NCBI GenBank assembly: GCA_030603365.1
Contig: JAUVXV010000003.1
Coordinates: forward strand, 256,001-320,000
Direction: 5' to 3'
Length of the DNA stretch: 64,000 nt
Source: Candidatus Heimdallarchaeota archaeon
Lineage (GTDB): Archaea > Asgardarchaeota > Heimdallarchaeia > Heimdallarchaeales > Heimdallarchaeaceae
Shown here: positions 56,081 to 63,760 of the stretch, in pieces
Numbering within the stretch: the first letter of the stretch is position 1
How the letters are laid out: every line of letters starts with the position of its first letter
Notes under the pieces: generated by a model
Told to the model about the DNA's origin: nothing
Databases searched by the model: none
The model's input: the letters and a program-made list of their open reading frames with translations, nothing else
Program-made: the position numbers and the translations under genes

Positions 56081-57289
56081 ATGTCCAATTTTGATTATGT
56101 AGAAGATGCTATGTTCGGAAAATCAATATTTAAAAATGAATCAACTCTTTATCCTGAATATGTTCCACCCGATCTTCCTACAAGAGAAGAGGATATCGCT
56201 AGATTGGCTAGAAACTTCAGATCTCTCTTAGGAAAAGAAGGCTCATTTTCAGTCAATGTAGCAATAGTCGGGCATGCAGGTATAGGCAAGACAAATTTAT
56301 GCAAATATACAATGAAACGTTTTGAAGAAGCAGCCAATGCAAGACATATCAATGTGAAATTCCTTTATTACAACTGCCACTCTTTCAGAAGTAAAACAGC
56401 TGTTCTTAGAAATGTTCTATCAGAGCATTTTAGGATACAATCAAGAGGTTTTAGTGATGAAGAGATATTAGACATGCTAGTTAAAAGATTGATAAAAGAA
56501 AATATTAGGTTAATAATTGCCCTAGATGAGGCTAACATGCTCAATTCCGAGGATATCTTGAGTATATTTCATGCAGGGGAGTATTTTGGGTCTGAACAAA
56601 GTATGATCTCTACAATCATCATTTCGAGACCGATAGAATGGCGATCGCTTCTGAATGTACCTCTTTCTGGGCATATTCATGACCAAATTGATCTTGAGGG
56701 ATACAACAGAGACCAGTTGCTTCAGATACTCAAATATCGAGCAGAGAAAGCACTCTATCCAACAGCTTATTCTGATGAAACACTTGATTTAATTGCCGAT
56801 ATATGTTCTGCATCAAGAAACGCTAGACATGGTTTAGAAATTCTATATCGATCTGGTAAACTTGTTGATCTGAAAAAAGAAAATTCTATTCTACCAGATT
56901 ATATTAGAGCAGCTAAGGCTGATGTTTATCCTGAATTAAGACGAGATGTTTTAGAAGAACTACGTAGTCATGAATTATTAGCCGCTTTAGGTGTAGCTAA
57001 AAAATTAGCCAAACAAGGTATCACATCAACTTCTGTGGATGAAGCTTATGATAACTATGTATTGGCATGTGAAGAGTATGGAGAAGAAGTGAGAGGAAAA
57101 TCAACATTTAGATCTGCACTAGATACTTTACATAAGGTAGGAATCATTGGGAAAAGTGTTGGCCCAATTGAGGAAGGCAAAAGAGGTAGAAGAGCGAAAA
57201 TTACAACCTTTGATATCCCTGCAACAGTGTTAGTTGAACGAATAGAGAATATTTTATCTAAACCAAGAAATATACATGGACATAACTAG
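56081..57289 (+). CDS. cdc6: Cdc6/Orc1 replication initiator
   Basis: YVPPDLPTRE, Walker A GHAGIGKT, Walker B LDE, RNARHGL, C-terminal winged helix with GKRGR. Confidence 0.95.
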   Translation: MSNFDYVEDAMFGKSIFKNESTLYPEYVPPDLPTREEDIARLARNFRSLLGKEGSFSVNVAIVGHAGIGKTNLCKYTMKRFEEAANARHINVKFLYYNCHSFRSKTAVLRNVLSEHFRIQSRGFSDEEILDMLVKRLIKENIRLIIALDEANMLNSEDILSIFHAGEYFGSEQSMISTIIISRPIEWRSLLNVPLSGHIHDQIDLEGYNRDQLLQILKYRAEKALYPTAYSDETLDLIADICSASRNARHGLEILYRSGKLVDLKKENSILPDYIRAAKADVYPELRRDVLEELRSHELLAALGVAKKLAKQGITSTSVDEAYDNYVLACEEYGEEVRGKSTFRSALDTLHKVGIIGKSVGPIEEGKRGRRAKITTFDIPATVLVERIENILSKPRNIHGHN

Positions 57290-57519
57290 TTGACACAAAT
57301 CATTGTCATGGAATTTTTTACTCCTTCAACTATGATATTATTATTTAGTACTTGATTCTTGAGTTCATCCATAGTTTCATATACAATTTTAACTATAAGA
57401 TCATAAATTCCATATACTGCATAAACTTCAGTAACTTCTTTGATTTGCTTTAAACCCTCTTGAACGGCTTCGAGCATTCCAGGTTGAACATTTAGAAGAA
57501 TATAAGCTGCTTGTGTCAT
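57286..57519 (-). CDS. Stand-alone Lrp/AsnC ligand-binding domain protein
   Basis: AYILLNV..EVYAVYGIYDLIVKI. Confidence 0.88.
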   Translation of the reverse strand: MTQAAYILLNVQPGMLEAVQEGLKQIKEVTEVYAVYGIYDLIVKIVYETMDELKNQVLNNNIIVEGVKNSMTMICVN

Positions 57520-57646
57520 TTTTAAACACTTTGTATTTTTGGGATGACAGATTCAAATCCATTTAAAAAAACTAACATTGGGACATGAGTAAAGAAAATT
57601 GTAATTTTTTATAAAAAGAATAAAAGAAAAAAGTAAAGCAAATAGG

Positions 57647-58966
57647 TTATTTTTGAGTTATTCGCAGTCTGGATTTACATGCGGGACAAGTCCCGTTTCC
57701 TACTATCCATTGGTAAAGATGATTTTTGTGGTATGCTATGTCACAAGAAGGACATCGAATTAGATTTTTATGATCGCCAATGATTTGCAAGCAAATCGAA
57801 CATTTGACTTTACTTTTTTCTGAGGTTTTAAGGCTATAATCTTCTATTGCATCATTAAAATTAATTGCTACAGTTTCTTGAGGTTGATATGAAACGGATT
57901 CATTTAAGTACTGAAATTTAGCAGAAGGTATATGTATCGAATCCATTACTGTTTTTTTTCTTCTCCTACGAACTACAACTCGGAAACAGATTGCTATAAA
58001 AGCGAATATAATCGCTCCATAGAGGAATAATCTAGCGAAATAAATAATAATGACCCAAAAGAAACTGGCATCTGAATTATAGTAATTATAGTAATCAATA
58101 TACCACATATAGTAGTAATCCGAATGAACCAAATCCAAAGGAATTTCCTCTAGATTATTATCTCCATAATTCAAAAATAATCTTGTAATATAGTTTTCTG
58201 CGATATGATCATAGTATAGTTTTGTAGAAATCCAACTAGTTGAGTTATAATCTTCAAATTTCAAACTTAAATTATACCACACATCAGGGACTAAGTAGTC
58301 ATATGTCCATAGAGTGAAGCTTTTGTCTTCTTCATAATCTAAATTGCTATCCAAATGAGCCACAAAATCATCATTTTCATAATAGATTGTTATAGAAAAA
58401 TTATCACTATTAATGAAATTATCAACTATGCTAACTACCATTTTTTCAACTTCTTGATATTCAAATTCCGATCTTTCTATTCCAAAGTATACATCCAAGT
58501 CAGGTTTAGTAATAAGTTCATAGGTCCAAAGTGTATAGTGGTTGTCAATACTTAGTGAATATCCTAATTCCTCAACATTTAGCGCAGTGAAGACAATTTT
58601 TACAATCCCTGTTATTCGAGAATCAGTTATAAAATGATGATTTTCAACATCGCTAGAAGGTATAAGCCAACTCTTTATTTCAGTATCATTAAAATCAAAT
58701 ACAAGACTTATTAATAATCCTTGATAAGGACCTTCAATATCTTCTCCCCAGTAGTTAACTATTGTCCTAAATTCCAAATATTCACTATCTAACTGAACAA
58801 ATAGTGTGGTTTCATTAAAAATCAAATTAGCATAGAAGTCATGACTTTGCACTGTGGAATTATAACTGAAATCAGCTTCAGTTTCCCCTATTGATTGTAT
58901 GTTACTCAACAATAATATTGCGAATAAAAGAAAAAAAATGAAAGGGAGGTTTTTAAATTTCTTCAC
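57647..58966 (-). CDS. Single-pass membrane protein with extracellular domain and cytoplasmic C-terminal RING finger (putative E3 ligase)
   Basis: Signal peptide, TM followed by RRRRKK, then CSIC-x12-CPSC-x4-HKNH..W..CPAC (57677..57802). Confidence 0.82.
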   Translation of the reverse strand: MKKFKNLPFIFFLLFAILLLSNIQSIGETEADFSYNSTVQSHDFYANLIFNETTLFVQLDSEYLEFRTIVNYWGEDIEGPYQGLLISLVFDFNDTEIKSWLIPSSDVENHHFITDSRITGIVKIVFTALNVEELGYSLSIDNHYTLWTYELITKPDLDVYFGIERSEFEYQEVEKMVVSIVDNFINSDNFSITIYYENDDFVAHLDSNLDYEEDKSFTLWTYDYLVPDVWYNLSLKFEDYNSTSWISTKLYYDHIAENYITRLFLNYGDNNLEEIPLDLVHSDYYYMWYIDYYNYYNSDASFFWVIIIYFARLFLYGAIIFAFIAICFRVVVRRRRKKTVMDSIHIPSAKFQYLNESVSYQPQETVAINFNDAIEDYSLKTSEKSKVKCSICLQIIGDHKNLIRCPSCDIAYHKNHLYQWIVGNGTCPACKSRLRITQK

Positions 58967-58971
58967 TTATT

Positions 58972-61080
58972 TCACCTTCTTTTTTTAATTATAATTGCAA
59001 TTACTGCTAGACACAATAATGGTAGGTAGATTGGCCAATAGTTTGTTGCCATTGGTTCTGTTGCTCCAGTCCAATAGTGACCATATGGTGTATACTGGTC
59101 TTCATAATCAAAGCTAATGAAAATCTCTCCAGTATGATATTCTGCATAAACAAGTATATACAAATCTTCTTCAGGTAAAATTACCTCTGAAGCCCCCTTA
59201 CTAATAAATTCCCAATTACTTGCATTAAAAACTATAATACTTGTTTGAACTACTATAGAATCTGCAACTATGCTTCTATCATCTTCATCGCTAAACTTAT
59301 TATCGATTCTAAAAAGCAGTGCATCTGTTTCGTCAATCTCTCTAGATATCTCTTGTTCAAAACTCAGGTTTTGAGGAATAACATTAGCTACTATTACTCT
59401 TGCATTATTTTGTGATATTAAAGATACTTTGATTAAATGATCTTTCTCGACTACTACTGTTTGATAAGGTACATTTTTGTTATTTAGGATTATTTCAGAA
59501 TCATTTACATCAGCAGCAAGAACATCGAAATTATCAGAATATCTGGAAAATATTAAACCAAATGAATCAAAGTAGGCATGTCCTATAAGCTTGCATACAA
59601 TAGCTTGATTTGGAAGTAAGATAAATTCTCTTCTCTTTCCAAGACTAACTAGTTGTTGGTTTTCTAGTTCTTCAAGATTAATTTCGAAAACTTCAGTCAT
59701 AATTTCGTTTTCTAACCAATCTTCGGAATATACTTGATAGCGCAATATTTCAGATGTAAATACATAAGGTAGAGTTAGAACATATGAGTGGTTGAAAACT
59801 TGAGACGCGTTAGCAATTGTCCAAAATGGTATATCATCTATTTTGTAGTATATATCTACAAAAGCAGTTCCTGTGACATCTTTAACTTCACACATTACAT
59901 TAATTAATTTCTCATCTGTGATGAAATCCTCGCTTATATAAACCCAGGAATCTATCTCTGGTGGTAGGTCATCTATAAGAATTACAAATGTTTTTTCCAT
60001 AGATTTTCGAATATAGAATTCATTTAGGTGAGAAAGTGTTACTTTGATTTGAAAGTTTAATTCCACAGCATAATAAACTATTAGTTCTCCAATAATTTCA
60101 GGGATATCACCAGTTTGAAGTTCTCCTTCTCCTAAGACTATGTAAGTACCTTCAGTATACTCAGCACCTGCTTCTAGTTGCACTTTTGTTAAACTATCTG
60201 ATCCACTAGCAGCTATAGAACACAAAACAAATCCTTCTTGAGCTAGGTTCTCAAACAAGTTATATAGTAATGGTCCATCATAATCTGAATCTGAACCACT
60301 ACCAATTACAACACCACCATCACAAGGTTCGTCAGTAATCAGTATTATCAATTTAACAGTATCTTCTCTCCAATCTAAATTATTTTGTGCAACCCAAAGC
60401 GCATCTCCCCAAGGTTCGTGACCTCCAGAAGCTGCAGTATTACCGAGAACAGTTACTATAGATTCTATATCATCAGTCAAAGGATAGACTAAATTTGGAT
60501 TAGTATAAGGATTTGAAGAAGTTCCTCCAAATAGAATTAAACTTAATCTAAAATCTGGTACTTCAGTACTTATTTCATCAATAACATCAATTAACTCTGA
60601 AGTAAGTACTTGAATTTCATCATCCATCGATCCTGATTGATCTAATACAATTGCTAAATCAAGGGATTTTGATACACCTGTATTTAGCGTCCCAGTTTCA
60701 ATAATATATTCCTGTGATATCCAAGATTCATTTAGATTCAAGTTATCTTTTGTTTCATTTAGTGGATTTAAAATGACACCATATTCATTAGTCTGAGAAC
60801 TTAACTCTAACTGACTTACTTCCTCAGAGGAAAAGTTTGTAATATTGAATTGTACAGTAAATGTACTTTCAGGTAGAGTTGATGGAATCCCATCAGTTCT
60901 GTGAGATGGTAGATTTGTTATCATTTCAATAGTTACATTTGACAGAGGACTCTCTACAGTAGAGAAATCTTTCTGTGGTTCTAAAATACGATCTTCTTGA
61001 CCAAAAATGGTCAAAGAAGGAACTATTAAACTGCATATTAAAACTGCAGTAAATATCTTTTCTTTTCTATTCAATTTCAT
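58972..61080 (-). CDS. Secreted, membrane-anchored vWA-domain protein
   Basis: Signal peptide; MIDAS LDQSGSM, GGHEP, ILITDEP; C-terminal TM + KKRR. Confidence 0.88.
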   Translation of the reverse strand: MKLNRKEKIFTAVLICSLIVPSLTIFGQEDRILEPQKDFSTVESPLSNVTIEMITNLPSHRTDGIPSTLPESTFTVQFNITNFSSEEVSQLELSSQTNEYGVILNPLNETKDNLNLNESWISQEYIIETGTLNTGVSKSLDLAIVLDQSGSMDDEIQVLTSELIDVIDEISTEVPDFRLSLILFGGTSSNPYTNPNLVYPLTDDIESIVTVLGNTAASGGHEPWGDALWVAQNNLDWREDTVKLIILITDEPCDGGVVIGSGSDSDYDGPLLYNLFENLAQEGFVLCSIAASGSDSLTKVQLEAGAEYTEGTYIVLGEGELQTGDIPEIIGELIVYYAVELNFQIKVTLSHLNEFYIRKSMEKTFVILIDDLPPEIDSWVYISEDFITDEKLINVMCEVKDVTGTAFVDIYYKIDDIPFWTIANASQVFNHSYVLTLPYVFTSEILRYQVYSEDWLENEIMTEVFEINLEELENQQLVSLGKRREFILLPNQAIVCKLIGHAYFDSFGLIFSRYSDNFDVLAADVNDSEIILNNKNVPYQTVVVEKDHLIKVSLISQNNARVIVANVIPQNLSFEQEISREIDETDALLFRIDNKFSDEDDRSIVADSIVVQTSIIVFNASNWEFISKGASEVILPEEDLYILVYAEYHTGEIFISFDYEDQYTPYGHYWTGATEPMATNYWPIYLPLLCLAVIAIIIKKRR

Positions 61081-61086
61081 ATTATC

Positions 61087-61106
61087 TCAATATATCGATA
61101 TGTTGA
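61087..61106. promoter_or_regulatory. 20-bp palindromic operator candidate, copy 1
   Basis: TCAATATATCGATATGTTGA; 9 of 10 symmetric pairs; in a divergent intergenic region. Confidence 0.55.
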
Positions 61107-61151
61107 TTTCACTAATAAATATTGTGGATGGGGTAGATTTGGCCAACAATA

Positions 61152-61171
61152 TCAATATTCCGATATATTTA
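61152..61171. promoter_or_regulatory. 20-bp palindromic operator candidate, copy 2
   Basis: TCAATATTCCGATATATTTA; 16/20 identical to copy 1. Confidence 0.45.
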
Positions 61172-61198
61172 TATTGTGGTTCTGTGTATGTTATTTTA

Positions 61199-61558
61199 AT
61201 GACAGAGAAGTATTTCAAAAAAATGATTGCACTTCTAGAAGAGATGAATACGAGATTAAAAAATATAGAACAGTCTCTTGGATCAGAGATCTCTCCAATT
61301 TCATCTTTGGATTTACTAACGAAAATTCCTAAATCGCATTTAGAAACCTATTTTACGGTACAAAGGCTAGATGAAGCAACATGTAAAGAAGTTGCAGATG
61401 AAACAGGTAGGGCATTCAATTTAGAATCAAGGTACCTTGTCAGATTGAATGAATTAGGCTTTTTGGATAGAAAAAGAGTACCAATTTCCAAACCTACTAA
61501 AGACAATCCCAATACAAGAGGCACAGAAGTTAAATACTTCTTGAAGGAGAGTAATTAA
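61199..61558 (+). CDS. Winged-helix DNA-binding protein with N-terminal coiled coil
   Basis: ATCKEVADETGRAFNLESRYLVRLNELGFLDRKR. Start moved to ATG 61199 because the longer ORF overlaps the vWA gene. Confidence 0.85.
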   Translation: MTEKYFKKMIALLEEMNTRLKNIEQSLGSEISPISSLDLLTKIPKSHLETYFTVQRLDEATCKEVADETGRAFNLESRYLVRLNELGFLDRKRVPISKPTKDNPNTRGTEVKYFLKESN

Positions 61559-61559
61559 G

Positions 61560-62324
61560 ATGAAGACAATTAGCGTTCATAGTTACAAAGGAGGAACTGG
61601 AAAGACTACTTTTCTGTTAAATCTTGCTGGTCTCTTAGCACAAGAAGGTAAGAAAGTATTAGCAATGGATTATGATTTAAGAGCTCCTTCTTTTCAATCA
61701 TATTTCAGCACAAATAATCTTGTTTCTTTATCTAATTATCTTCTAGAGGATACACCAATATCAAAAATAATATTTCCATGTCAAGTTAATGATGAAATTC
61801 ATCTTGATATTGTGTTTTCATCCATGGAATTTTTACAGCAGCATTCCAAGCAAAGAGATAAATTGTCAAGAGATGATTCCAAATATCTGTCAAAACTTTT
61901 TAATCTCCAGAAGTTAATATCAAAAACTTATGATTATTTGTTGATTGATACAATTCCTGGATTCTTCTATAGATCAATTGATGCATTGATGGTTTCGAAT
62001 ATAATTCTTGTAGTCGCTAATCCTAGTATATCTAATATTCTTGGACTTGAAGAGTTGAGTGGTAATATCTACTCTATGCTGAGTAAAGAAACAAAGATGG
62101 TTTTATTGATAAACAAAATCGAAGAAGAAGGAATTCAAGCTGATAAAACTATCTTTGAGGAAAATCTTTCAAAACTTAAGAAAATTGGGGACCAAATGTT
62201 TACTCATACTTTGGAGGTTCCTTTCTTCAATATGCTTAGTGAGAGAATCTACGCATTTGAAAAGGATACAAATAAGGAATTTTTAGATGTAATAACAAAG
62301 TTATCTAAAATAATTAGAGAATGA
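61560..62324 (+). CDS. MinD/ParA family ATPase
   Basis: Deviant Walker A KGGTGKTT, DYDLRAP, YDYLLIDTIPG, LINK. Confidence 0.92.
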   Translation: MKTISVHSYKGGTGKTTFLLNLAGLLAQEGKKVLAMDYDLRAPSFQSYFSTNNLVSLSNYLLEDTPISKIIFPCQVNDEIHLDIVFSSMEFLQQHSKQRDKLSRDDSKYLSKLFNLQKLISKTYDYLLIDTIPGFFYRSIDALMVSNIILVVANPSISNILGLEELSGNIYSMLSKETKMVLLINKIEEEGIQADKTIFEENLSKLKKIGDQMFTHTLEVPFFNMLSERIYAFEKDTNKEFLDVITKLSKIIRE

Positions 62325-63760
62325 GAAAAATGGATAGTAAAGAGAAAGTACAAAATGAAGATTTGCAAAAAATTAAGAACTATCTTCAAAATTCAAAGAA
62401 GAATATTGAAAGAATGAAAATAGGCAAAAAACCACGCCGAAAGTTCAAATTCATAATTAAAGAAAACAAATTTCTCTTTACTCTTGTTCTAATTATCATC
62501 GTAACCACACCTTTACTCACAATTATTTTAAACAGAAATCCTCTCGCAACTAGTCCTTACAAAGATGCTATAACAAATACAATGGAAACTTTTGAATCAA
62601 ACTTCACTGCAGTTAGTGGACTTCCAGTACATGAAGTAATTTCAGAAAACACTAGTTCAGAACTAATTATTTTGTCAACCTTAGCAAACTCAATACTTAT
62701 TGAAAGTGGGCTTTTCTCCAAAAAAGACAATTTAATGAAGCGAATTTCTTTTATTTTTGAAATTATTGTTGATGATTCTTTCAGAGATTACAATAATAAA
62801 ACACAGAAATTACCTGTTTTCAACCAATTTCTTGGGATCTATGCACTCTATCAAGCATTTTATGTATTAGAAGATACTGCATTTGCATTTAGTTTTACTA
62901 ATATTAGCCGAATCGTTAATACTATGATTACTGACTTTTTGTACTACTCTACATGGCCTAATCTCTTTGCTGTTTCTGAAGATACTAGTACTTCATATTT
63001 AGTTGACCAAGCTCTTGCACTATCTGTTCTTACTACTCATATGTTCTTGACTGGAGAGCAGAAGGTTTTTGGTTGGGATCTCAAAGAAATAACAGGAGGT
63101 ATGTTAAGTCGCATTGAAAATCGTTTCTATATCTCTGCATCTCAATCCTTCTTTCATAAATATGATACAGTAACTCATGTAAGTTCAGGAATATCGACTT
63201 CAGCTGATTTAATGTTTACTTCATTAGGATTATCAAGAACAGAGAAATTTTCTTCAGGTTACGCTTTTCCCCTAAGTAGCTATAATTTACATCAAAAAGT
63301 AATCAATGAATTAATAGATTCAAATTGGTTAGTTCATGAAGTTGATAAAATTGATGATTCTATTCAAATTAAGGATCAAGCATTTTTTACAATGGTTTCT
63401 TATCTTTTGAACTTACAAAATGTCGGATTAGAGATTGAAAATTCAACATCTACTTTTCTGTATTCAGAAGATGGCTTTGTTAATAGCTTACAAAACCCGA
63501 TTGTAACGGCAGAATCGTGTATGTATGGTTTAATTACTATGTCTTCGAAGAACTGGGCAAAAATTCAAAATGAAAGAGAATATGCACCTGAACCCAGACC
63601 AACTCCTACAGGAACAGGAACAGAAACAGAATCCCCAGTACCTTCAGCAAGTTTTAGTTTTGTTGGAGTAATCTCTGCAATTGTTGTGATTGTAGCTCTT
63701 TCAAGGATGTCTATGAAATATAAGACGAGAAAGAAATTTGGTGACCAGGCCGAGATTTGA
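62321..63760 (+). CDS. Membrane protein anchored at both ends, with a six-hairpin-glycosidase-like extracellular domain
   Basis: N-terminal TM; repeated helix starts (YLVDQALAL, IKDQAFF); PTPTGTGT linker; C-terminal TM. Confidence 0.6.
   Translation: MRKMDSKEKVQNEDLQKIKNYLQNSKKNIERMKIGKKPRRKFKFIIKENKFLFTLVLIIIVTTPLLTIILNRNPLATSPYKDAITNTMETFESNFTAVSGLPVHEVISENTSSELIILSTLANSILIESGLFSKKDNLMKRISFIFEIIVDDSFRDYNNKTQKLPVFNQFLGIYALYQAFYVLEDTAFAFSFTNISRIVNTMITDFLYYSTWPNLFAVSEDTSTSYLVDQALALSVLTTHMFLTGEQKVFGWDLKEITGGMLSRIENRFYISASQSFFHKYDTVTHVSSGISTSADLMFTSLGLSRTEKFSSGYAFPLSSYNLHQKVINELIDSNWLVHEVDKIDDSIQIKDQAFFTMVSYLLNLQNVGLEIENSTSTFLYSEDGFVNSLQNPIVTAESCMYGLITMSSKNWAKIQNEREYAPEPRPTPTGTGTETESPVPSASFSFVGVISAIVVIVALSRMSMKYKTRKKFGDQAEI

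Follow-up and report, generated by a model that had tools for sequence, protein, structure and literature searches.

Two adjacent genes on the reverse strand of this Heimdallarchaeaceae contig are hypothesized to encode a two-chain surface receptor that would link contact outside the cell to ubiquitin tagging within it, a reading to which we assign a probability of about one half. The first gene encodes a surface protein with a vWA domain (the vWA chain) and the second a single-pass protein with a RING finger (the RING chain); their features are listed in Table 1 by position in the window, the 64,000-nucleotide stretch of DNA that was analysed. The ligases that tag membrane cargo in Asgard archaea, and their triggers, are a gap in current knowledge, and the locus supplies a candidate for such a ligase, coupled to a receptor, for which an interface is predicted and the residues to mutate can be named. 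If the hypothesis is true, ubiquitylation controlled by surface contact would be present in close archaeal relatives of eukaryotes. A literature search, which covered few subscription papers, returned no description of a vWA/RING pair.

Table 1. Features of the vWA/RING gene pair (residue numbers in brackets)
Feature	Positions	Strand	Basis or remarks
Divergent spacer, two imperfect palindromic copies, 79% identical	61084-61172	none	Kept in relatives
vWA surface chain gene	58972-61080	-	702 aa ORF
Predicted signal peptide, vWA chain (~1-28)	60997-61080	-	Hydropathy; AF2 helix 5-22
Ig domain hosting vWA, N-terminal part (49-129)	60694-60936	-	Model strands
BetaI-type vWA domain (139-339)	60064-60666	-	Pfam, conservation, PDB sequence matches
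Same vWA-hosting Ig domain, completing part (341-369)	59974-60060	-	Model strands
Second Ig domain (375-468), strand 418-424 the predicted RING-chain contact	59677-59958	-	Structure and complex models
Two membrane-proximal beta domains (482-659)	59104-59637	-	Structure model
C-terminal hydrophobic anchor and KKRR, no cytoplasmic domain	58975-59043	-	Hydropathy
AGGTGA Shine-Dalgarno-like site over vWA stop, with 5-nt spacer	58967-58977	-	Sequence
RING chain gene	57647-58966	-	439 aa ORF, GTG start, single-pass
Predicted signal peptide, RING chain (~1-27)	58886-58966	-	Model helix, hydropathy
Jelly-roll domain 1 (39-145), GOLD/PPC-like	58532-58852	-	Z 9-10, rmsd 2.3-2.8 to GOLD/PPC
Second all-beta domain (148-282)	58121-58525	-	Weaker jelly-roll matches
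TM helix (~303-332) and RRRRKK stop-transfer (333-338)	57953-58060	-	Model, hydropathy
Cytoplasmic linker, low pLDDT	57803-57952	-	Invariant Y360, P362, F370, Y377
RING finger C4-H2-C2, I391, W420, P428, linchpin-position K431	57677-57802	-	Pfam, homologs, fold, literature motif
Oligo-T tract just past RING stop	57595-57640	-	Sequence

The gene pair and the predicted topology of its chains

The ORFs and their junction were found as the sequence-only reading had claimed: the genes are co-directional with a 5-bp gap, and the AGGTGA motif that holds the vWA stop codon is followed by 5 nt and then by GTG. The overlap of this motif with the stop suggests translational coupling of the RING chain to the vWA chain, and the 5-nt gap, the overlapping site and the conserved gene order are consistent with the co-transcription that we propose. 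To judge by its sequence, the oligo-T tract is a probable archaeal terminator closing a two-gene unit, and the palindromic copies in the divergent spacer are probably regulator sites; a scan for bacterial promoters and terminators gave nothing informative. A type-I membrane protein encoded in tandem after a C-anchored surface protein was counted at 1/171 in the genome, the single instance being this pair, and the pairing is therefore not one of chance.

The topology of both chains was derived from hydropathy, the positive-inside rule and AF2 helices, and both would be secreted and membrane-anchored. The model of the vWA chain (mean pLDDT 82.6) comprises a signal peptide, an Ig ('hybrid-like') domain into which the vWA domain is inserted, another Ig domain, two beta domains and a C-terminal anchor. 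The signal peptide, intact MIDAS (DQSGS) and C-terminal anchor proposed earlier are borne out by a hydrophobic N-terminal helix, a Pfam VWA/VWA_2 match over cut-off at residues 141-256 (DQSGS being 147-151) and a hydrophobic C-terminus followed by KKRR. In a register set against integrin beta3, the MIDAS consists of D147, S149, S151, E222 and D250, with D154/E155 ADMIDAS-like; D147, S149, S151, E155, E222 and D250 are invariant among vWA homologs and D154 is nearly so. Residues 99-370 of the model superpose on the hybrid and betaI domains of integrin beta6 (Z 17.9, rmsd 4.1, 227 aligned). With its Glu-MIDAS and its place inside an Ig domain, the vWA domain is of the integrin-betaI type. The C-terminus of distant vWA homologs resembles a Loki-CTERM sorting signal; the vWA chain gave no Loki-CTERM match, whilst P0088 passes the cut-off and others score under it. 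An exosortase-family gene is present in the genome.

Hydrophobic helices lie near residues 9 and 314 of the RING chain, and the ectodomain (18% D/E, 20% F/W/Y, 4% K/R) gives way after the TM helix to 20% K/R, with the RING finger on the positive-inside side of the membrane rather than outside the cell. Hydropathy, composition and model helices thus confirm the order that had been read from the DNA: signal peptide, acidic/aromatic ectodomain, TM helix, RRRRKK and cytoplasmic RING. The density of N-glycosylation sequons was uninformative as a topology marker (0.018 versus 0.014 per residue). The ectodomain is modelled as two beta jelly-rolls, the second of which (148-282) has middling scores to furin (Z 7.7) and a GH43 xylosidase (Z 7.8). 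A PA domain was considered for this region and rejected on the confident all-beta model and the GOLD/PPC matches at Z 9-10, and Pfam gave no PA match at E<=1 in the RING chain; an Atlas feature search with the ectodomain returned no usable match. The linker, by virtue of its four invariant residues (Table 1), is a candidate docking motif for substrates or adaptors.

Predicted contact between the chains and exchange of partners

Prediction of a complex between the vWA and RING chains gave a score of 0.71 as against 0.00 for the best control. Of 80 solved complexes, 58 scored at least as high, and of 110 mismatched pairs, 2 did so, although this calibration is rough for the alignments used here. 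The complex runs share at least 96% of their contacts, with a partner pLDDT of at least 82. The surface-sensing module of the sequence-only reading thereby gains a predicted physical link, and the model supports direct binding of the two ectodomains. In it, strand 418-424 of the vWA chain would pair with strand 96-103 in jelly-roll 1 of the RING chain; contact passes through residues 407-461 of the second Ig domain and leaves the MIDAS free. The contact is an edge-strand pairing, and the conserved sequon N424 adjoins it. On the RING side the interface (85-113, with S99, W100, D106 and H110 invariant) is conserved beyond what random sets of ectodomain columns show (p ~0.001-0.002). The vWA-side columns do not exceed the remainder of that Ig domain in conservation (p 0.35); beside this must be weighed the occurrence of vWA-chain W420 in many homologs with other partners.

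The absence of excess conservation on the vWA side would suit another view, in which the two surface proteins share only their regulation and a stable gene block, there is no complex and the interface is an edge-strand artefact. The pair is conserved in the family, as the earlier reading had required, with both genes adjacent and in the same order in 22/22 relatives carrying the vWA gene; neighbouring wHTH, MinD-like and Cdc6 genes are equally syntenic, so that synteny inside one family is weak evidence and the stable-block view can draw on it too. Against that view stand the 0.00 of the complex-prediction controls and the situation in three other lineages, where the vWA family still has as its neighbour a protein that spans the membrane once and carries an output domain in the cytoplasm, while other neighbours change. 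A closed genome (G030) also speaks against it, a single deletion having removed the vWA gene together with the 5' end of the RING gene and its signal peptide. We did not accept this genome as a counter-example to conservation of the pair, because the same deletion took both; an error of assembly could likewise account for it. On balance we consider independent surface proteins improbable.

A two-chain receptor is also in keeping with the partners of the vWA family elsewhere in Asgard archaea, which are single-pass proteins of different kinds: FG-GAP-like/RING, WD40/RING-like and, in Lokiarchaeum ossiferum, winged-helix. In Hodarchaeales the partner's finger is related but has Asp as its sixth ligand and lacks the conserved Trp, and several Hodarchaeales pairs are convergent and not co-transcribed; no such neighbour was found beside some vWA homologs (L053-L055, L057, L070, L071). 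Homology among the partners' ectodomains was rejected, as hhalign found none and the fingers alone align. This partner swap points to a ligand-binding chain combined with an exchangeable signalling chain. Both the betaI type of the vWA domain and the exchange of partners between lineages had been overlooked in the earlier reading. It is possible, though on the doubtful side, that Asgard archaea possess a class of modular two-chain receptors in which ligand is bound by a conserved betaI-type vWA chain and the output comes from an exchangeable single-pass partner, namely RING or RING-like ubiquitylation in three Heimdallarchaeia lineages and winged-helix DNA binding in Lokiarchaeia; the propeller versions might share the head arrangement of integrins, and possibly ancestry. 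Were this true, it would mean ligand-controlled ubiquitylation across a prokaryotic membrane by a class undescribed so far. Lokiarchaeum ossiferum is cultured and holds a related vWA/winged-helix pair (L058/L100), and the two-chain idea is therefore testable in cells.

The RING finger and its putative output

The zf-RING_2 match at residues 388-431 of the RING chain scores 27.3 bits, exactly the Pfam cut-off. None of the eight ligands (C389, C392, C405, C408, H413, H416, C427 and C430) varies among 24 homologs, nor does W420; I391 and a basic residue at the linchpin are nearly invariant. The fold, with a central helix at 414-424, matches the Prp19 U-box (Z 7.5, rmsd 1.2-1.4, 48 aligned). The sequence matches are RING-H2 E3s, among them Arkadia (E 9e-8), ZNRF3 (E 8e-4) and RNF13, although the ligand order is C4-H2-C2 and not that of the RING-H2 (C3H2C3) subclass. 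The C4-H2-C2 order was dismissed as a special feature, being common among the RINGs of this genome. A PHD or C1 finger was likewise discarded (PHD E 0.14 versus RING 4.5e-6) in view of the U-box fold and the RING-H2 E3 matches, in agreement with the original assignment of a RING rather than a PHD fold. By motif, I391, W420 and K431 correspond to I30, W58 and R69, which the active RING of Caldiarchaeum srfp needs (PMC5654768). Ligands, fold and E2-contact residues thus mark the RING chain as a probable RING-type E3 domain, with putative ubiquitin transfer. The machinery expected in the host genome is all present, ubiquitin, E1 and two Cys-bearing E2s being accompanied by a UEV-like protein and ESCRT, and Ub-ESCRT machinery is established in Asgard archaea (PMC9192718).

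Our working hypothesis is that the free betaI-type MIDAS, as its family would suggest, coordinates, through a divalent metal, an acidic side chain presented by a surface protein from outside or nearby. Since the vWA chain lacks a domain in the cytoplasm, the output would be the partner's RING, which may recruit Ub-loaded E2 and ubiquitylate itself or membrane proteins in the complex, as its E2-contact residues and the activity of archaeal RINGs would allow. Tagged proteins could then be cleared through the Ub-ESCRT system or the proteasome. Of these steps, control of ubiquitylation by the ligand, whether by clustering or by capture of substrates, has the least support, and the same evidence for binding and for RING integrity (the complex model and invariant ligands) would serve equally for a RING that is constitutively active in adjusting the amount of an adhesin complex at the surface, or in its quality control, with no MIDAS signal. 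The predicted contact lies far from the MIDAS, so that no allosteric path is evident. However, KKRR is all that the vWA chain exposes to the cytoplasm, and the chain may be cleaved at a CTERM-like signal, which would make it a poor ubiquitylation substrate, and the winged-helix partner of Lokiarchaeia suits signalling better than disposal; we therefore regard constitutive ubiquitylation as unlikely. Very unlikely, in our estimation, is a complex in which the RING is a non-catalytic scaffold for a UEV/E2-like or other cytoplasmic protein. The non-canonical Hodarchaeales finger indicates that the partner slot tolerates such fingers, and a Helarchaeales RING protein binds UEV-Vps23 (10.1101/2023.07.25.550441), but the present family keeps its ligands, W420 and, almost throughout, I391 and the basic linchpin, a pattern that speaks against such a scaffold.

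Comparison with known systems

Integrin beta shares with the vWA chain the third-loop Glu MIDAS ligand, ADMIDAS-like acids and a vWA inside an Ig domain, and integrin beta6 is its top PDB sequence match (E 5e-4); the propeller/FG-GAP-like partner ectodomain of integrin alpha-beta recurs in two other lineages of vWA pair. In contrast to integrin beta, the vWA chain has no PSI/EGF (no Cys-rich) domains, NPxY tail or SyMBS Asn/Asp (Ala/Gly precedes E222), and its partner has jelly-rolls instead of the 7-bladed propeller on which betaI docks in integrins, with predicted contact via the next Ig domain. Other vWA proteins tie with integrin in fold score and align over similar spans, so that an Ig-inserted vWA is not diagnostic of integrin beta; because vWAs of the betaI type occur widely among bacteria, archaea and protists, integrin ancestry is rejected for now as a firm claim.

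Plant RGLG and WAV3 are vWA-RING fusions, each one cytosolic polypeptide. The parallel drawn with them earlier holds in that vWA and RING act together, but here they would do so from two chains and opposite sides of the membrane, and it is kept as an analogy.

The archaeal E3s assayed in the cited studies are small operon-encoded RINGs (PMC5654768; 10.1101/2023.07.25.550441). Those of Caldiarchaeum (srfp) and Helarchaeales resemble the RING chain in an extra Cys near ligand 3, the E2-contact Ile, Trp and basic linchpin, and the presence of Ub/E1/E2 in the genome; they are small, are encoded in Ub operons and were tested as soluble proteins, whereas the RING chain carries an ectodomain of 270 aa and its gene is distant from the Ub cluster.

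RNF43/ZNRF3 and the PA-TM-RING proteins (GRAIL/RNF128, RNF13, plant RMR) have the same layout of signal peptide, ectodomain, one TM, linker and RING, and ZNRF3 also acts with a second membrane protein, LGR4/5. We found no evidence of orthology of the RING chain with either group. Its ectodomain is two all-beta domains and not PA, and its finger C4-H2-C2 and not C3-H2-C3; the likeness to RNF43/ZNRF3/GRAIL first noted from the sequence is therefore one of presumed working and not of membership, an analogy in which the partner is the vWA chain of the same operon.

The gene pair and its setting

The vWA gene and the gene for the single-pass RING protein lie in tandem on the same strand, and the two ORFs, their 5-nt spacing and the AGGTGA motif over the vWA stop were all borne out as the sequence-only reading had described them: the stop of the vWA gene sits within AGGTGA, 5 nt before the GTG of the RING gene, and the RING-gene stop is followed by an oligo-T tract. 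We infer that the two genes are co-expressed. Of the 171 C-anchored surface proteins of the source genome, the vWA chain alone has a type-I membrane protein, the RING chain, encoded in tandem behind it. In one Hodarchaeales genome (locus L068), wHTH and MinD-like homologues likewise lie divergent from a vWA gene.

Features of the source genome (G000; its contigs C1 and C11), the window (first five rows) and homologous loci (L numbers)
Feature	Location	Strand	Description
vWA chain ORF	58972-61080	-	702 aa
RING chain ORF	57647-58966	-	439 aa, GTG start
Palindromic copies	61084-61172		two, imperfect, one by each start codon; kept in relatives; probably regulator sites
Divergent genes	61199-63760	+	wHTH (start probably 61199 rather than 61007), MinD/ParA-like ATPase, doubly anchored membrane protein; adjoin vWA gene; conserved family-wide
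Small conserved ORF	~57286-57519	-	~77 aa; between RING gene and convergent Cdc6/Orc1 gene; by eye Lrp/AsnC ligand-binding-like
Ub-ESCRT cluster	G000 C1:324692-332009		ESCRT-III pair, Vps4, ESCRT-II-like, UEV-like, E1, pro-ubiquitin; names partly by eye
Tandem RING genes	G000 C11:103593-105891		two, membrane-anchored
G030 junction	L044:6385-8480		membrane-protein gene end joined to decapitated RING gene; vWA, wHTH, MinD-like missing (deletion or misassembly)
G028 RING gene	L045:7773-9048		split by frameshift
WD40 partner	L061:5486-7822		secreted propeller, TSP3-like calcium repeats, TM, RING-like finger (Asp at ligand 6), zinc ribbon; likewise in relatives
Lokiarchaeum ossiferum B35 pair	L058:6139-9746		vWA homologue overlapping ectodomain-TM-double winged helix gene by 4 bp
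1554-aa protein	L067:2660-7324; L069:1198-5871		type-I surface protein downstream of Hodarchaeales vWA gene

The names of homologues assign the source genome to Heimdallarchaeaceae. The proposed link to ubiquitylation finds its components there: ubiquitin (ending GG-S), E1 and a UEV-like protein are encoded with ESCRT genes in the C1 cluster, and two catalytic-Cys E2s are encoded outside it. There are 13 zf-RING_2 matches, mostly on proteins with membrane helices, and C4-H2-C2 is a common ligand order among the RINGs of this genome; only in the RING chain does a signal peptide occur together with a large ectodomain and just one TM. Membrane-bound RING proteins number about nine in total.

Conservation and exchange of partners

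The vWA gene is present in 19 of 24 same-genus genomes and in three other genera, and the pairing proposed from the sequence recurs in every relative having it, the RING gene always coming immediately after the vWA gene. Where a genome has no full-length match to one gene, the other is mostly missing too, although most such genomes are incomplete. In a closed, 3.33-Mb genome (G030), a single deletion, or else an assembly error, accounts for the joint absence of the vWA gene, its divergent neighbours and the RING-chain signal peptide; the frameshift in a second relative (G028) reflects either decay or assembly error. Synteny also extends to the flanking genes (wHTH, MinD-like and Cdc6), and within the family it is therefore by itself no proof of function.

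Full-length vWA-chain homologues, falling in four well-supported clades, occur in two more Heimdallarchaeia families (f5 and f6) and one Lokiarchaeia family. In eight genomes of f6, which from the JABLTI accession we take to be probably Gerdarchaeales, a protein of ~1006 aa is encoded directly downstream, with an ectodomain (FG-GAP/Ig-like as a lead only; Atlas 0.88), a TM, a zinc ribbon and a RING homologous to that of the RING chain (hhalign E 2e-11). In about ten genomes of f5 (records named Hodarchaeota) the partner, adjoining in tandem or convergently, carries a WD40 propeller, TSP3 repeats and a TM as well as a RING-like finger (hhalign 91%); several of the copies are partial. The gene next to vWA in Lokiarchaeum ossiferum B35, a cultured organism, and in its relatives encodes an ectodomain-TM-winged helix protein, at L058 a putative membrane-tethered transcription factor. 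The 200-aa cytoplasmic domain of the 1554-aa protein appears longin/uDENN-like by eye and has no Pfam match. Partner ectodomains of different lineages are mutually unrelated, and some extra vWA copies have no single-pass neighbour. Of the genomic arguments for a functional pair, the strongest is that a single-pass partner recurs even as the other neighbours change.

The two chains and their predicted complex

Hydropathy places helices of the RING chain near residues 9 and 314, and K/R content rises from 4% before the TM to 20% after it, which therefore puts the RING inside the cell, as had been proposed. A RING rather than a PHD fold is likewise upheld by a zf-RING_2 match at cut-off (27.3 bits, PHD far behind), by RING-H2 E3s as top PDB sequence matches and by the fit of the model to the U-box of Prp19 (Z 7.5; rmsd 1.2-1.4 over 48 residues). 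All eight zinc ligands, W420 and P428 are invariant in 24 homologues, and I391 nearly so. Activity of a Caldiarchaeum RING requires I30, W58 and R69 (PMC5654768), matched by motif by I391, W420 and K431, the last directly after the final Cys ligand; both RINGs have an additional Cys near ligand 3. E3 activity of the RING chain thus seems likely. The ectodomain is confidently modelled as two all-beta domains, the first resembling GOLD/PPC jelly-rolls (Z 9-10), the second with weaker matches; a PA domain was considered and ruled out on this fold. In the disordered linker Y360, P362, F370 and Y377 are invariant, a possible docking motif.

The vWA chain has VWA matches above cut-off and N- and C-terminal hydrophobic helices by hydropathy. 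Its model has a vWA interrupting an Ig domain, then a second Ig and two more beta domains, and ends in a helix, a cytoplasmic domain being absent. The third-loop MIDAS residue is Glu222, and D154/E155 are ADMIDAS-like. Integrin beta6 gives the top PDB sequence matches and aligns over its hybrid and betaI domains (Z 17.9, rmsd 4.1, 227 residues), other vWA proteins tying with it in the structure-match list. BetaI-type vWA domains are also present in bacteria, methanogens, ciliates and giant viruses, and the chain is betaI-like, not an integrin beta. Its anchor may be processed, because the C-terminus of distant homologues resembles a Loki-CTERM signal and the source genome carries a gene of the exosortase family.

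Structure prediction with residues 48-668 of the vWA chain and 36-290 of the RING chain scored 0.71 (best control 0.00), supporting the suggested binding; 58/80 solved complexes and 2/110 mismatched pairs attain this score, a calibration only roughly applicable because our own alignments were used. Runs share at least 96% of contacts, with partner pLDDT of at least 82. The modelled contact joins vWA-chain residues 418-424 (with 407-411, 451, 459 and 461) to RING-chain residues 85-113, leaving the MIDAS free. On the RING side, conservation of the contact columns exceeds that of random sets (p ~0.001-0.002, neighbouring columns being non-independent); on the vWA side there is no excess (p 0.35). 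We consider it quite probable that the chains form a complex.

Proposed mechanism and known systems

Building on the observed anatomy and conservation of the pair and the presence of the machinery, we hypothesize that the metal site of the vWA chain most likely engages a ligand and that this chain, being tail-less, would leave output to its partner, whose RING would recruit an E2 and ubiquitylate its own chain or proteins trapped in the complex. Tagged proteins would then be cleared via Ub-ESCRT or the proteasome, and ligand may control the ubiquitylation. We give the complete ligand-coupled scheme a probability of about 0.5.

A literature search found no published description of the pair. The layout of the vWA chain is partly that of integrin beta, yet it fails tests that define that family. 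Similarly, the likeness to RNF43/ZNRF3-type receptor ligases drawn in the sequence-only reading does not extend to family membership, the pair failing tests that define the family, such as a PA ectodomain, yet it stands for the mode of working, in which the vWA/RING pair appears alike.
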